Shown here: piece by piece, positions 35,429 to 40,808 of the stretch
Position numbering within the stretch: the first letter of the stretch is position 1
Layout of the letters: every line of letters starts with the position of its first letter
Assembly (NCBI GenBank): GCA_043822925.1
Contig: JBDRBF010000020.1
Coordinates: 1 to 46,920, forward strand
DNA: 46,920 nucleotides
DNA from: a bacterium
GTDB lineage: Bacteria > Babelota > Babeliae > Babelales > RVW-14
Reading direction: 5' to 3'
Notes under the pieces: generated by a model
Seen by the model: the letters and a program-made list of their open reading frames with translations, nothing else
The model's database searches: none
What the model was told of the DNA's origin: nothing
Position numbers and translations under genes: made by a program

Positions 35429-36691
35429 ATGGATAATAAAGTAAAAAAGTTTGCAAAATCAGTTCTATCGGATATTCAAGCGAAAATTCAAGACGTTTCT
35501 CATGAATTAAAAAAAACGTATGAAGTTGTTACATTAAATAAGTATTTAGCATCTTGTGGTCTTTGTTCTCGCCGAAAAGCTGAGGATGAGATAAAGCAGG
35601 GGTTCGTTACGGTGAATCACGCTGTAATTACTAATCCTGGTTATCGGGTTCAAGAGAAAGATGTTGTTCGGTATAAAAAACATGAAGTAAAGCCAGAAGA
35701 TTTTGTGTATATTTTGCTGAATAAACCAGATGGATATGTTACAACGGTTTCTGATCCTCATAATAAAAAGACTGTTATGCAGTTAATTGAGAGTTCGGTT
35801 GTAGGGGACAGGCGATTGTTTCCTGTTGGTCGGCTAGACCTTCATACAACGGGGCTTTTGCTTATTACGAATGATGGGGAATTGTCTCAACAGTTAGCGC
35901 ATCCTAAAAATGGGGCGCAAAAAATGTATCAAGTATTGCTTGATCAGCCTTTGCTCGAAAAAGATTTGCAAAAAATTCGTGATGGAATCAATTTAGATGA
36001 CGGTTTTGTTAGTTCTGACCGAGCATATTACATTTCTGGTGGTTCAAAGCGGCGTGTTGGCATTCAGATTCATACGGGAAAAAATCGTATTATTCGTAGA
36101 ATTTTTAAATTTCTTGGTTATAACGTTGTTTCTCTTGATCGTGTGGCGTATGCTGGTTTATCAAAACATGGTTTATTGCGTGGCCAATGGCGATTTTTAA
36201 TGCCAAATGAAGTTGTAGCGTTGCGTCACGCTGGTAAGGCTACGACTATGGATATTATTAAAAGTGTAAAAGAGAGTAAATCGGTAGCCAGAACAAGGCC
36301 GAGTAGGCCTTCTGCTACGGTAAGATCTCGTTGGGCTGCAGATAAAGCGAGATCTAGTCGTCCTACAAATAAAGAAAAGATTAATTGGGCAGTAGGCAAA
36401 GTTCCGTCTAGTCAGCCTATAGATAAAGAAAAGTCGCGTCGCTCAACAGGTAAAGCAAGACCTGGTCGGCCTACAAATAAAGATAATTCTAGTTGGTCGA
36501 CAGATAATGGAAAATCGAGCCGGCCTGTTGGTAAAAAAAGATCTGGTCAGCCTATAGATAAAGACAATTCTAGTTGGTCTATAGATAAAGCAAAGCCGAG
36601 TCGCCCAGCCGGTAAAGCAAAGCCGAGTCGGTCTACAACTAAAGAAAAACCTAGTTGGACAGCAGCTAAAGCTCGATTCAAAAAATCATAA
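35429..36691 (+). CDS. rluB: rRNA pseudouridine synthase (RluB/RsuA family) with repetitive basic tail
   Basis: S4 domain SRRKAE; LNKPDGYVTT; VGRLD..TTGLLL.TNDG. Confidence 0.88.
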   Translation: MDNKVKKFAKSVLSDIQAKIQDVSHELKKTYEVVTLNKYLASCGLCSRRKAEDEIKQGFVTVNHAVITNPGYRVQEKDVVRYKKHEVKPEDFVYILLNKPDGYVTTVSDPHNKKTVMQLIESSVVGDRRLFPVGRLDLHTTGLLLITNDGELSQQLAHPKNGAQKMYQVLLDQPLLEKDLQKIRDGINLDDGFVSSDRAYYISGGSKRRVGIQIHTGKNRIIRRIFKFLGYNVVSLDRVAYAGLSKHGLLRGQWRFLMPNEVVALRHAGKATTMDIIKSVKESKSVARTRPSRPSATVRSRWAADKARSSRPTNKEKINWAVGKVPSSQPIDKEKSRRSTGKARPGRPTNKDNSSWSTDNGKSSRPVGKKRSGQPIDKDNSSWSIDKAKPSRPAGKAKPSRSTTKEKPSWTAAKARFKKS

Positions 36692-36712
36692 AATATTTAT
36701 ATTTTGCTTAGA

Positions 36713-36756
36713 GAGTAGGTCTATATTAAGTTTTAAATTTGATATAGACCTACTTT
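36713..36756 (+). terminator. Hairpin downstream of rluB
   Basis: AGTAGGTCTATAT / ATATAGACCTACT stem. Confidence 0.7.
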
Positions 36757-36981
36757 AATTTATATGCGCTTGAGTATTAGCTTGAGGATGCTCAAGCTAA
36801 AGTGTTGTGATTGTGAGTCTTACGATATAAGCTGTGGCGCTTCTTGTGCGTCATGCTCAGTAATGGTTTGTTTGTAGTTGTTTTTTTTCTAGTAATCGTG
36901 GTTTTTATTTTGAGGGATTTTGTGAGATCGATTGCGTATTGAGATTTGTTGATAAAAAAATATTTTTGTTTGTTTTTTGAC

Positions 36982-37010
36982 TTGACATAGAACCAGGGTG
37001 TTGGTACCAT
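36982..37010 (+). promoter_or_regulatory. Near-consensus sigma70 promoter
   Basis: TTGACA-17-TACCAT with extended TGn and an A/T tract upstream. Confidence 0.8.
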
Positions 37011-37015
37011 TTGGC

Positions 37016-37167
37016 AAGATAATTTGTTCGCAGTAGAAGGCAAATGCAAAGTTGTGAAAAGTTATCTTCAAAATATGAAATAAAGTCCCTAAATGAACAA
37101 TACCTAAAAAGTATTGTTCGCCCCCCCAACCCTCCAGCTTGTTCTAAGTTGGAGGGAGTTTTTTTTT
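37016..37167 (+). ncRNA. Candidate ~150 nt small RNA of unknown family
   Basis: Lies between promoter and terminator; three hairpins; C-rich linker; T9 tail. Confidence 0.65.
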
Positions 37168-37192
37168 AGATATATAAAATTGTTATTAGCTG

Positions 37193-37666
37193 TTATTTTT
37201 TATTTGTTTGAGCGATTCGGCTTAATGGTCCCTGAATATGTTTATCATGTTGTTTAAATACAGTTCGCACAAGATAACTATAGTTACATCTCTTTTTTGT
37301 ATCTAGATAGTTATTTGTTGTAATGGGAGTTTTATTTAACGAGTGTTTTGGAATAAATCCGTTTTTTGTGAGGCAATAAATATTATAGCCAACAAAATGG
37401 GTGTTTTTTTGTGTGTATTTTTGTAGTTCTTCTTCTGTTGTTTTATCCCAGGATATTTTTTTGCCTGTTTGAGTTGTTTTTACAGAAACATTTTGAACAC
37501 TTGGTAAATCAAGTGTCGCGACGGTGATAACTGTTTTTTTAGCGAAAGAAAACGGATAACGCCGTTTTCTTCCACAATTTGAAAAGCAACATACAATAAG
37601 AAGCAGAGCACTATATAGTTGGCGTGAAGATAGTTCCAAATTCTTCAGCTGCTTTTTTAATTTCAT
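37193..37666 (-). CDS. Putative lipoprotein with FN3-like domain
   Basis: LLLIVCCFSNC-GRK lipobox-like; ISW..GYNIY..LN..PI..Y.D..YSYLVR; start uncertain, overlaps atpA. Confidence 0.65.
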   Translation of the reverse strand: MKLKKQLKNLELSSRQLYSALLLIVCCFSNCGRKRRYPFSFAKKTVITVATLDLPSVQNVSVKTTQTGKKISWDKTTEEELQKYTQKNTHFVGYNIYCLTKNGFIPKHSLNKTPITTNNYLDTKKRCNYSYLVRTVFKQHDKHIQGPLSRIAQTNKK

Positions 37667-39125
37667 TGACATCGTCTTCTGATAAATCTTGTGTCTTTTC
37701 AATGTTTTTATATACCTCTGGGTAAGCCCCTTGAATATAACTTGCGCATTGTACTACAAATGGTTTGATATTTCGTAATTGTAGTTTGCGTAAATAGCCT
37801 TCTTTAAGTAAGAATAGAAAAATAGTCTGATCAACAAATGAGTATGTCTCGTGTTCTTGTTGATTTAAAATTTCGAGGGCTCTTCGACCAGCATCAAGTG
37901 CTTTTTGACTTTCTTTATCAAGTTCTGAACCGAATTGTGCAAAGGCGAGAAGCTCTTTGTATTGAGCTAAATCAAGTTTTAATGTGCCAGACACTTTTTT
38001 CATTGCTTTTGTTTGAGCAACGCTGCCAACACGTGATACTGAAAGTCCAATATCTATAGCAGGTCTAACACCGCTATTAAATAAATTGGTGTCTAAAAAA
38101 ATTTGTCCATCGGTGATTGATATTAAATTTGTTGGAATATATGCAGAGATGTCATCACCTTGGGTTTGAATTATAGGTAGAGCTGTTAGAGAGCCGCTTC
38201 CTAGTTCTTCGCAAAGTTTGCCTGCACGCTCAAGAAGTCTCGAGTGAATATAAAAAATATCACCTGGATAGGCTTCTCGTCCAGGTGGGCGTCTTAATAG
38301 TAACGATAGTTCGCGATAAGCGATGGCGTGGGCACTTAGATCATCATAGAGAATAAGAACATCTTTGCCTTTGTTCATAAAATATTCACCGATAGTGCAA
38401 CCAACGTATGGCGATAAATATTGGTTTAGTGCGGGTTCTTTTGCATTTGCGTCAATAATTATAGTATAGGCAAGGGCGCCAAATTGTTCGAGCTGATAGA
38501 TCATTTTTGCTGTGTCAGATTGCTTATGCCCAATAGAGACATAAATACAAATTACGTTTTGATTTTTTTGATGTAAAATCGTGTCGAATGCTATGGTGCT
38601 TTTTCCGGTACGTCGGTTACCAATTAAGAGTTCTCGTTGTCCGCGTCCAATGGGAATAAGGCTGTCAATAGCTATGATGCCGGTCTCTAACGATTGATTG
38701 ATCGGACTCCTGCGTGCTATGCCTGGAATTGTTGGCTCTATGGGCATTTCTTTATCGAACTCGAGCTGTCCGCAGGCATCGATGGGTTTTCCACGTGCGT
38801 TAATAACTCTGCCGATGAGTTTATCTCCAACAGGAATAGAGAAAACCTTTCCTGTTCTTTTGGCGATTTCTTGTTCTTTTACGGAGGTTGATTCATCAAG
38901 TAAGACAACCGAAACGTAATCTTCATCAAGATTTAAAACGAGGCCGCTGCCTCCACCTTCGAATGTGATAAATTCGCTGAAAGATGCGTTTTTAAGGCCA
39001 TAAATGCTGCAAATTCCATCGCCAACTTTAATCACTGTTCCAATCTCGTCTAAGTTTTCTTGGGGTTTTTCACTCAAGACTTGTTCAAGTATCGAAACTA
39101 TATCAGTATCTCTTTTTTCTATCAT
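37611..39125 (-). CDS. atpA: F1 ATP synthase alpha subunit
   Basis: VGDGI, PIGRGQREL, RRPPGREAYPGD, SITDGQI. Confidence 0.98.
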   Translation of the reverse strand: MIEKRDTDIVSILEQVLSEKPQENLDEIGTVIKVGDGICSIYGLKNASFSEFITFEGGGSGLVLNLDEDYVSVVLLDESTSVKEQEIAKRTGKVFSIPVGDKLIGRVINARGKPIDACGQLEFDKEMPIEPTIPGIARRSPINQSLETGIIAIDSLIPIGRGQRELLIGNRRTGKSTIAFDTILHQKNQNVICIYVSIGHKQSDTAKMIYQLEQFGALAYTIIIDANAKEPALNQYLSPYVGCTIGEYFMNKGKDVLILYDDLSAHAIAYRELSLLLRRPPGREAYPGDIFYIHSRLLERAGKLCEELGSGSLTALPIIQTQGDDISAYIPTNLISITDGQIFLDTNLFNSGVRPAIDIGLSVSRVGSVAQTKAMKKVSGTLKLDLAQYKELLAFAQFGSELDKESQKALDAGRRALEILNQQEHETYSFVDQTIFLFLLKEGYLRKLQLRNIKPFVVQCASYIQGAYPEVYKNIEKTQDLSEDDVNEIKKAAEEFGTIFTPTI

Positions 39126-39676
39126 AATCCTACTCGATGTAAAACAGACCGCTTAACATTATTAAGTTGTTTAACGAATGAGCGTTCCCATACAACATTA
39201 TCTCCAAGAATTTTTATTCCACAAATTAACGTTTTGTCTATAAAAAAATCAGCTAAAATTGTTGCGTTAATAGTTTTTTTCAAAAAGCTGTGTATCGTTT
39301 GCTTTTCGTTTTCTTCAAGAGGATGTGATGAATAAACTTTAAAAGAAAGAATGTTTTTACGTGTTTTATATTCTTTTATAATCTGTTCGACAACTTTATC
39401 AAATATTTCGATTCTTTTTTGTTTGAAAAGAGCCCGAGCTAAAATACAACTTGTAGCGTCTATTTTTAAAGAGTGTAATATTTTTTCAAATGAATTTTCT
39501 CTAATATTATCAGGGATAGATGATAAATTTAGATACATAGAAATTGCTTTGTTTGTTTTAAAAAAAAATCTTAGTTTTTCTAAATTGTCAAAACATGCTT
39601 TATCCATTTTGTTAAGGTAGAGGTTGAGTAAAGCTGAGGCATATTTTTTAGCAATGACTTCTGTTTGTAGTATCAT
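39122..39676 (-). CDS. atpH: ATP synthase delta subunit
   Basis: IAKKYASAL; SSHPL; DKTLICGIKI; position before atpA. Confidence 0.88.
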   Translation of the reverse strand: MILQTEVIAKKYASALLNLYLNKMDKACFDNLEKLRFFFKTNKAISMYLNLSSIPDNIRENSFEKILHSLKIDATSCILARALFKQKRIEIFDKVVEQIIKEYKTRKNILSFKVYSSHPLEENEKQTIHSFLKKTINATILADFFIDKTLICGIKILGDNVVWERSFVKQLNNVKRSVLHRVGL

Positions 39677-40176
39677 GTTTTTGCGTGATTATTTAGAGGT
39701 AAAGTAAGGATAAGTTTTTGTAGTTCGGTTGATCCGTGTTCTTGCGCATAGAGTGCCATCAGTTTTTTTTCTACTAAGCTGAAGACTTGAGGTATTACCT
39801 GTTCAGCTATTTTCGCATTCGCAAAGTGTGCTTCTTGAACTGTTCTTTTTGCTTCTATTTGGTCATAAATTATTTTTTTTGAAGCATCTTCTTGTTGTTT
39901 ATTTTTAAGCATTGCTTGGTACCATATCTGGACTCTTTTCTCCAAAGTGATGAGTGTTTTTTTTTGTACTCCAATTTGAAGATCCATTCGTTTTATGGTT
40001 GCCGTTAAAAGTTTTTCTTTATCCAACAGCTCTGATTGGTGTTTTTTGTAGTTTTTTATGCGGTGAAACAAAAATGGGATAATATGCTTTTTCCCGAGCG
40101 CCCATAATTGATAAAACAGCAAAGAAAAAAGTGTTGCATGAAATATAATACTTAAAGCGCTGCTACCAACATGCAT
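39673..40176 (-). CDS. atpF: Divergent ATP synthase b subunit
   Basis: N-terminal TM plus long helix; position between b' and delta. Confidence 0.65.
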   Translation of the reverse strand: MHVGSSALSIIFHATLFSLLFYQLWALGKKHIIPFLFHRIKNYKKHQSELLDKEKLLTATIKRMDLQIGVQKKTLITLEKRVQIWYQAMLKNKQQEDASKKIIYDQIEAKRTVQEAHFANAKIAEQVIPQVFSLVEKKLMALYAQEHGSTELQKLILTLPLNNHAKT

Positions 40177-40522
40177 GGGATATTCTATTCGTTAGAATTT
40201 TTTCTGCTTGATCACTGAGTTGTTTTATTTCTTGTTCATTTTTTTTATATGCAAGTTTTGAGCGAATTGGAATGTCTTGCGATTGTTCAACGTGATATTG
40301 TTTTTTTAGATATAACCGAAAATCCTGCAGTAAGCTTTCTTTTTCTTCAGTTTTTTTAACTAAAGAAAGTTCTCTTTGTTGTAAACTTACAAGTAATGCT
40401 TTGCGCGCTTTCTCGCGTTGATCGCGCATTGCAACAATAGGTTTACATAAAAGTCTACTGAGAAAGAAGTATGTAATCCAAAAATTAATAATTTGTACAA
40501 AAAGAGTGACGTTGATATCCAT
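40163..40522 (-). CDS. ATP synthase b' subunit
   Basis: INVTLFVQIINF...KPI....QRE. Confidence 0.85.
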   Translation of the reverse strand: MDINVTLFVQIINFWITYFFLSRLLCKPIVAMRDQREKARKALLVSLQQRELSLVKKTEEKESLLQDFRLYLKKQYHVEQSQDIPIRSKLAYKKNEQEIKQLSDQAEKILTNRISHACW

Positions 40523-40562
40523 TGGTATTTCCTTTATGGAGGCTCTTTTTTTACGTGTTATG

Positions 40563-40808
40563 TTATTTTACATAAAAGAGTAAAATTAACGAGATAAGAA
40601 GCGCGTATATTGCCGTAGATTCAACGAAGGCTAATGCGACGATCATTGTCCTTAGAATGACGTTTGCATTTTCTGGTTTTTTGCCGATACCTTCACATGC
40701 TTTTCCACCGATAAGACCTTGTCCGATTGACGGTCCAAGTGTGCCTATGCCCATACAGAGTCCTGCTGCTAAGCATGCAGCTGTTTTTACCCAATTGATA
40801 TCAGCCAT
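40563..40808 (-). CDS. atpE: ATP synthase c subunit
   Basis: GPSIGQG, KKPE loop, ESTAIY. Confidence 0.97.
   Translation of the reverse strand: MADINWVKTAACLAAGLCMGIGTLGPSIGQGLIGGKACEGIGKKPENANVILRTMIVALAFVESTAIYALLISLILLFYVK

Follow-up and report, generated by a model that had tools for sequence, protein, structure and literature searches.

A phylum-wide, apparently undescribed small RNA with unpaired C-rich tracts in Babelota

A predicted intergenic transcription unit between a pseudouridine synthase gene and the atp operon

What is encoded in the non-coding DNA that separates a pseudouridine synthase gene from the convergent end of an atp operon in a genome of Babelota? The locus lies in a stretch of 46,920 nt (the window, meaning the whole stretch that was analysed) from a genome referred to here as G000. 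A first-pass annotation had proposed a plus-strand small RNA (sRNA) gene at this place. The features of the locus are as follows.

35429-36691, plus strand: pseudouridine synthase gene with S4 and synthase domains, RluB/RsuA type, not resolved to subfamily (PF00849 and PF01479)
36712-36756, plus strand: 20-bp terminator-like hairpin that sets the pseudouridine synthase gene upstream apart from the sRNA
36982-37010, plus strand: sigma70-type promoter (TTGACA 36982-36987, 17-nt spacer, TG 37002-37003, TACCAT 37005-37010)
37016-37167, plus strand: predicted sRNA transcript of about 150 nt (start placed by the spacing from the -10; fold z=-6.3)
37016-37068, plus strand: hairpin 1, a variable 5' leader that is not conserved (MFE fold and locus comparison)
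37085-37093, plus strand: seed A, GUCCCUAAA, predicted unpaired (unpaired probability mostly 0.8-0.9)
37095-37119, plus strand: hairpin 2, 9 bp, variable loop (fold and compensatory changes)
37120-37129, plus strand: seed B, predicted unpaired C-run, G-C7-AA in the window (C7 itself 37121-37127)
37130-37167, plus strand: intrinsic terminator, CCCUCC/GGAGGG stem and U-tract (stem 37130-37156, T9 37159-37167)
37193-37702, minus strand: convergent ORF of 169 aa, last gene after atpA (homologous cluster of 38 members)
37611-39125, minus strand: atpA, end of the convergent operon (PF00006, PF00306, PF02874)

The promoter with its extended TG, hairpin 2, the C7 run, the terminator and T9 all lie where the first-pass annotation had put them, the last four also being present in the MFE fold. 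On its own the promoter match is not beyond chance: it is the best (10/12, TG present) of six promoter-like sites in 36000-38500, and such sites are equally common in shuffles (7.2 +/- 2.6). When G000 was crudely scanned for non-coding stretches with a strong promoter ahead of a terminator, two units emerged in all, one of them the sRNA. The 150-nt plus strand folds with an MFE of -42.3 kcal/mol (z=-6.3; 0/200 shuffles as low), compared with z=-3.2 (1/200 shuffles) for the minus strand, on which no U-tract was found.

The absence of a plus-strand gene downstream was confirmed, as the 169-aa ORF and atpA come next, both on the minus strand. Homologues of this ORF form a cluster of 38 among the neighbours of 54 sRNA loci, with no match in NCBIfam and a Pfam match only below the cutoff. 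The closest downstream ORF is convergent in 52/54 loci and in all of a further 20 (72/74 together), arguing that the sRNA is not a leader. The convergent operon is the atpA end in the window's family and some others, and elsewhere an M23-peptidase/PilO-like/secretin operon, while the genes upstream of the sRNA differ between loci and the pseudouridine synthase is not conserved there.

Several features of these neighbours were noted in passing. The pseudouridine synthase carries a basic, low-complexity, repetitive C-terminal extension of about 150 aa. The atp genes at 37193-40808 comprise c, two b-like ORFs, delta and alpha, the remaining subunits not being adjacent, and the ORF after them (37193-37702) belongs to a family that ends the operon in many relatives.

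Transcription of the locus is weakly hinted at by one wastewater metatranscriptome contig from a close relative (186 nt, depth 3.1, one of four RNA runs), which aligned to 37012-37166 with 9 differences in 155 nt and agrees in its aligned part with the predicted transcript within a few bases. In the same run the rest of 35836-37839 is uncovered except for a small piece within 36838-37004. Such contigs show neither strand nor ends and may come from DNA, and the other three runs (X2-X4), which gave no coverage of the locus, are uninformative.

Conservation and covariation across the phylum

With a covariance model built from 47 copies, a full-length single copy of the sRNA was found in 143 of 151 genomes of Babelota (Dependentiae/TM6), in 17 of 18 families, and five genomes held an extra weak or partial match. 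By BLAST, the 3' ~85 nt matched once per genome in 60 relatives at 79-95% identity. An exact 26-mer had 34 matches among 185,579 species genomes, labelled either TM6/Dependentiae/Babeliales or generically ('uncultured Pseudomonadota', 'bacterium') with the same locus; genomes outside Babelota were probed by this exact 26-mer alone, so distant homologues in other phyla are not excluded. A degenerate pattern found no match in IMG/VR, nor did blastn in plasmid and phage collections.

A TTGAC[AT]-17-TANNNT promoter precedes the sRNA at 54/54 distinct homologous loci (leaving out the contig-end locus L037 and duplicate loci), and TTGAC[AT] was recognized by eye at 19/20 divergent loci. Among the sRNA loci inspected from L001-L075, TTGACA and the extended TG are kept and the -10 is not TATAAT, unlike the rRNA promoters (L076-L080), which have TATAAT in the four found; the non-TATAAT -10 of the sRNA may reflect regulation. 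Between promoter and core, the 54 loci have 5' leaders of 20-78 nt with folding energies from 0 to -17 kcal/mol and no common fold, suggesting that hairpin 1 is accessory. Thus, the hairpin 1 described earlier at 37016-37068 is present in the MFE fold of the window, and it is lineage-specific and outside the conserved unit. As judged from the alignments, that unit is a predicted ~85-nt element made up of UCCCUAA (seed A), hairpin 2, the C-run and the terminator.

Compensatory changes were observed at 11/20 pairs in 40 divergent copies (alignment fitted to the model) and at 6/20 in a plain MAFFT alignment of 52 copies, with 0/500 shuffles as high in either case, a control that is inflated by the relatedness of the copies. 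Among the 40 divergent homologues, 8/9 pairs of hairpin 2 changed on both sides with 98.6% of cells paired, and of the 11 pairs of the terminator stem three are compensatory and five invariant. One-sided stem changes nearly all yield G-U on the plus strand.

In the same alignment seed A reads UCCCUAA in 31/40 homologues and the CCCU motif is absent in 4/40, whereas a C4-8 run stands immediately before the terminator in 40/40; in most other families seed B is A-C5/6-UAA. In the two copies from genus g21 seed A is gone and hairpin 2 differs in sequence with its pairing intact, so that the C-run and terminator alone stay invariant. The most divergent copy, L081 (G108):1088-1177, has a shorter linker, and its hairpin 2 loop has gained a C6-UAA motif and so resembles a 6C-type loop.

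The search for homologues and covariation in relatives therefore bore out the earlier proposal, showing conservation in 143/151 genomes and compensatory stems, and a plus-strand small RNA gene is strongly supported by the strand difference in fold (z=-6.3 vs -3.2) and by phylum-wide conservation of promoter, stems and terminator. We regard it as very probable that the locus is a real RNA gene. The non-coding unit is conserved and structured, is bounded by signals of its own and has C-rich tracts outside its stems. To our knowledge, regulatory sRNAs are rarely conserved over an entire phylum.

Lineages without the RNA

Of the eight genomes without a match, seven were treated as losses; a second covariance model run on the genomes without a match found nothing convincing. 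The syntenic gap lacks the sRNA at all five loss loci examined (G093, G159, G050, G140 and G070; one gap is 2 nt), and the convergent operon remains at each of them, while G104 and G055 were counted as losses from the model search and their genus, not from the syntenic site. G165, G005 and G013 had no full match and are incomplete, and were not counted. On this comparison the sRNA has been lost five times independently, indicating that it is not essential.

Relation to known RNA families

No Rfam family reached its gathering score at the locus, so the novelty that had been claimed for it stands. Of the six matches at E<=10 the best, rli38 (E=1.2), was treated as chance, and in the whole window Rfam found only three tRNAs. 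The first-pass annotation had not recognised the sRNA as SRP RNA, RNase P RNA, tmRNA or 6S RNA. The first three were each found elsewhere in G000 by family model, none matching at the sRNA locus, and for 6S RNA there is neither an RF00013 match in 6/6 Babelota genomes nor a long rod around a central bubble in the fold. Another tmRNA-like match below the cutoff (G000:C35:7756-8133, L103; 42.5 bits, E 8e-16) was observed about 600 nt from the true tmRNA.

The sRNA has its own promoter and intrinsic terminator, an intergenic position and no conserved ORF, as expected of a trans-acting base-pairing sRNA. A leader peptide was rejected because several homologues lack the sole ATG of the core and the hairpin 2 loop lengths shift the frame. 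A riboswitch or attenuator leader is contradicted by the convergent downstream gene (72/74 loci) and by an alternative fold about 11 kcal/mol worse, and a terminator/antiterminator switch by the cost of that fold (median 10.8 kcal/mol, range 6.6-14.4). Against a CsrB/RsmY-type sponge, the conserved core has a single GGA, which is part of the terminator stem, and CsrA was found in 0/41 genomes, as was Hfq. No stretch complementary to 16S rRNA is shared among five genomes (best 9-10 nt, at differing places), and an altered anti-SD in Babelota was discarded, since the 16S tail is canonical in 5/5 genomes.

A literature search of main texts, mostly outside subscription journals, found no description of an sRNA in Babelota. 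The main texts of PMC4378268 and PMC4776705 do not mention small or non-coding RNA, and in the text portions of PMC6561590 and PMC12172432 there is, respectively, no 'non-coding' and no RNA-initial word. The genome-map legend of PMC6561590 marks 'other ncRNAs', and the annotation or large motif-discovery supplements of that study could list the sRNA. Taken together, this is apparently an undescribed family acting like C-rich anti-SD sRNAs.

Three known systems come closest, compared here by their published descriptions. RsaE/RoxS of Staphylococcus and Bacillaceae is described in PMC2790875 as a conserved, Hfq-independent RNA whose unpaired UCCC blocks ribosome initiation on several mRNAs. Seed A of the window likewise has an unpaired UCCC (UCCCUAA, 31/40 homologues), but the phylum is a different one, there is no sequence or model match, the Babelota seeds lie on either side of a hairpin that covaries, with a C5-7 run among them, and the candidate targets concern cell division, proteolysis and secreted proteins, not metabolism. 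The 6C RNA of Actinobacteria, according to PMC6486639, is phylum-wide, carries C-runs that reach many mRNAs through G-C pairs with no chaperone, and has replication and secretion targets. The Babelota RNA is also a phylum-wide C-run sRNA, for which such pairing is inferred; whereas the C-runs of 6C sit in hairpin loops, those of Babelota are in single-stranded linkers, except in G108, and the RNA does not have two hairpins with C-rich loops, the hairpin 2 loop being variable. IhtA of Chlamydia is reported in PMC4355289 as conserved in an obligate intracellular bacterium and controlling a developmental protein by short G/C-rich pairing; it occludes the AUG with a loop and, going by a section heading there, has no SD interaction. 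In contrast to IhtA, the Babelota seeds contain no CAU, and no Rfam match was found.

The covariance models of RsaE/RoxS and 6C gave no gathering-level match in the window or at four divergent loci, and neither family is among the six matches at E<=10. With no model match and a different architecture, the sRNA is not a member of RsaE/RoxS, 6C or IhtA. By analogy, we infer that it plays a part like that of IhtA and works like RsaE/RoxS and 6C.

Poly-G Shine-Dalgarno sites and their proposed pairing with the C-runs

The unpaired C-rich tracts had been proposed to pair with G-rich Shine-Dalgarno (SD) motifs. In 5/5 genomes the 16S tail reads CCUCCUUU, the ordinary sequence, and G000 shows a strong enrichment of G-rich SDs ahead of its starts, with at least four Gs at -18..-4 in 214/1286 called genes compared with 32 at -40..-26. 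That poly-G SDs are common although the 16S tail is canonical counts for pairing between C-run and SD. Moreover, the excess of GGGGG-N3-9-ATG over the N14-20 spacing has a median of 21 in 143 carriers of the sRNA, against 5 in the seven losers (p=0.002, or p=0.009 when five lineages are counted; ratio test p=0.04; p=0.037 with a reversed-pattern control), where the carrier-loser statistics rest on five independent losses and related genomes are not independent. Exceptions to this trend are G140 and G050, and the excess is <=5 in 17/143 carriers.

Genes with such sites also tend to encode signal-peptide-like proteins, with both gene starts and signal peptides called by in-house heuristics, of which the signal-peptide one wrongly flags FtsA. 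In G000, 58/91 genes with an SD of at least five Gs are signal-peptide-like, compared with 125/276 with a canonical SD (p=0.0025). This bias gave ~0.01 with one gene per paralogue cluster and p=0.05 with first-ATG starts (42/69 vs 93/200), and was not significant among operon-internal genes (7/15 vs 24/67). Three genomes of the distant family f3 showed the same direction without significance (13/21 vs 10/25, p=0.24), after 39/60 G5 and 35/60 AGGAG places had been filtered out as non-gene-starts. Among 489 genes in homologous loci, 3/7 genes with at least five Gs are signal-peptide-like, a comparison with no power. Irrespective of the sRNA, poly-G SDs are a distinct class in G000, enriched before secreted orphan proteins.

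Two other comparisons went against pairing. SD G-runs tend to be preceded by AA and followed by A, which suits the 16S tail, and the C or UU that the seeds predict are not in excess there. A composite site for both seeds occurs at chance level (45/261 genomes, the reversed control giving at least as many matches); of the 30 two-seed loci examined, seven are at a gene start and six of these look secreted by eye, although one of the seven is G000's own and two are homologous. The pairing proposal is supported in part, by the carrier-loser, ftsA, lon and signal-peptide data, and failed the flank and two-seed comparisons. In addition, base-pairing with mRNAs leaves the invariant sequence within the stems unexplained.

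Two observations from these sequences stand apart. In 5/5 genomes, UCG-AGGGAG or UCG-AAGGAG comes after the anti-SD, just past the 16S 3' end (L076-L080), and the resulting hairpin would mask the anti-SD in pre-16S rRNA. In G000, two near-identical genes of ~925 aa, presumably gyrA-like, lie on different contigs (C6:18135-20927 and C57:8546-11320) with almost the same leader, reflecting either duplication or a strain mixture.

Candidate targets

Both lon and ftsA have G5 SDs in G000 and in the distant family f3, a pattern that emerged unexpectedly from the f3 replicate. A prospective comparison of ftsA then followed in 30 genomes outside the discovery set. An SD of at least four Gs precedes ftsA in 15/23 carriers and 1/7 losers (p=0.03); for at least five Gs the counts are 10/23 and 1/7 (p=0.21). 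The median cognate cofold ddG was -12.4 in carriers and -5.5 in losers (p=0.02), the partner being each carrier's own sRNA and, for losers, that of G065. Loser G050 keeps G6, and 8/23 carriers have no run of at least four Gs. Since the 16S pairing energy at ftsA shows the same trend as the sRNA energy (p=0.08), the G-runs may simply be strong SDs. The ftsA of G108 was seen to have no G-run.

For lon, an SD of at least five Gs was found in G000 and in 9/9 metagenomic relatives (two near-identical), a set not split by sRNA carriage and holding no loser SDs; four of the nine carry UAGGGGG, the complement of CCCCCUA. In an accessibility model of G000, ftsA ranked 7 and lon 247 of 1286. On these comparisons, we infer that ftsA and lon are the best conserved candidate targets.

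A G-rich leader of topA is confined to members of f1, f7, f13 and f14 (6/24 relatives with a readable start), and pilC was rejected as a conserved target, having no conserved G-run. For ruvC here, the SD likewise contains no G-run. The pilC-like genes show an internal TGA in G047:C21:39002-40180 and a split over two frames in G006:C1:1159090-1160296.

By the account in PMC4378268, ftsA mRNA of Babela massiliensis is present throughout the cycle and ftsZ mRNA only from 16 h. Regulation of ftsA at the level of translation would be compatible with this. In C. destructans, PMC6561590 gives a putative signal peptide on 44% of proteins.

Alternative explanations

Among the other readings, the one that survives best, though it is unlikely, is a protein sponge or scaffold, whose two CCCU/CCCC sites flanking the hairpin would be occupied by a dimeric protein with affinity for C-rich RNA (KhpA/KhpB, Rho, S1 or NusA). 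KH domains and Rho prefer C-rich RNA, and a sponge would fit the CCC(U/C)A motif repeated on either side of hairpin 2, the sequence-invariant stems, the KhpA-like genes over cutoff in 31/41 genomes and the Rho found in 5/5. However, KhpA does not track the sRNA: loser G070 has it (E 1e-19), and carriers sampled from f6, f12, f2 and f5 have no short KhpA-type match, with weak hits in longer proteins. Rho is also present in losers G070 and G050, CsrA as partner is absent (0/41 genomes), and a sponge does not predict the carrier-loser pattern of ftsA.

It is quite improbable that the RNA is a cis element of the convergent operon (M23-pilO-secretin or atpA), either a terminator working in both directions or a short antisense transcript, by which the operon's 3' end would be insulated or trimmed. 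The downstream gene is indeed convergent (52/54 and 20/20 loci) and often abuts the terminator, but that neighbour varies (atpA operon, secretin, M23 peptidase, PilO-like, exonuclease) while the sRNA does not, and the operon persists without the sRNA at 5/5 loss loci. The minus strand has no U-tract, one-sided changes are nearly all G-U on the plus strand, and terminators are not known to keep their sequence across a phylum as a rule.

A ribosome- or rRNA-directed RNA, be it an anti-SD mimic or a decoy in 16S maturation or for idle ribosomes, seems a shade less probable still. Its dispensability in five lineages stands against the housekeeping-like conservation and consensus -35 that suggest such a role. 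The 5' arm of the terminator resembles the 16S tail, yet the core shares no complementary stretch with the 16S region of five genomes (best 9-10 nt), and the pre-16S trailer hairpin has AGGGAG in 4/5 genomes, while the AAGGAG of the G006 trailer comes with no matching seed change.

That the RNA is a highly reduced stand-in for 6S RNA, binding RNA polymerase, is very improbable. RF00013 finds nothing in 6/6 Babelota genomes, which is weak evidence for 6S absence as the search was positive in just 5/14 control genomes, and the alternative fold that closes seed A against the 3' arm of the terminator costs a median of 10.8 kcal/mol (6.6-14.4). The fold also lacks the long rod and central bubble of 6S RNA, and the core of ~85 nt compares with a model of 187 positions.

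We give hardly any credence to a host-directed telomerase-template mimic, for which CCCUAACCCU and CCCCAACCC, which resemble the complements of TTAGGG and TTGGGG telomere-type repeats, and the CCCUAA that occurs twice in most families would speak, because UAG, UAU and UAC variants break the repeat in 9/40 homologues and a C-run beside a C-rich terminator arm yields such a match by itself. The vesicles that bacteria of Babelota release inside protists, as described in PMC6561590, were counted in its favour.

Proposed mechanism and meaning

The reading that we favour, and consider probable from the comparative data, is that of a trans-acting sRNA working without Hfq or CsrA, whose C-runs would block poly-G SD sites. 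Its conservation indicates that the RNA is probably ancestral to Babelota, with its own sigma70 promoter and terminator, transcription being hinted at. Hairpin 2 and the terminator, by fold and covariation, would keep the two C-rich stretches single-stranded, and the C-runs may then form all-G-C pairs with poly-G SDs, which the 16S tail CCUCCUU would read only with G-U wobble; canonical AGGAG sites would fit the C-runs poorly. As with RsaE and 6C, pairing would block 30S loading without Hfq, and the comparative ribosome-binding-site data point to ftsA, lon and a changing set of lineage-specific secreted proteins as putative targets. A role in the timing of division and secretion in the intracellular cycle is speculative.

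Babelota are parasites of protists; they grow into an undivided mass and do not divide until late. It is conceivable, although we hold it doubtful, that the two SD classes form a regulatory code, in which the sRNA would read poly-G, ignore AGGAG, and act as a life-cycle master switch for FtsA, Lon and secreted proteins. If this were true, FtsA, Lon and secreted host-manipulating proteins would be held back while the undivided replication body grows, repression would be released when it splits into infectious cells, and orphan effector genes would enter the regulon merely by gaining a G-run SD.

The sRNA persists in reduced parasite genomes of ~1 Mb without Hfq and CsrA; it warrants a new Rfam family and could act as a short phylum marker. 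With cultured hosts, named candidate targets and five loss lineages as controls, it offers a handle on the late division of these bacteria.
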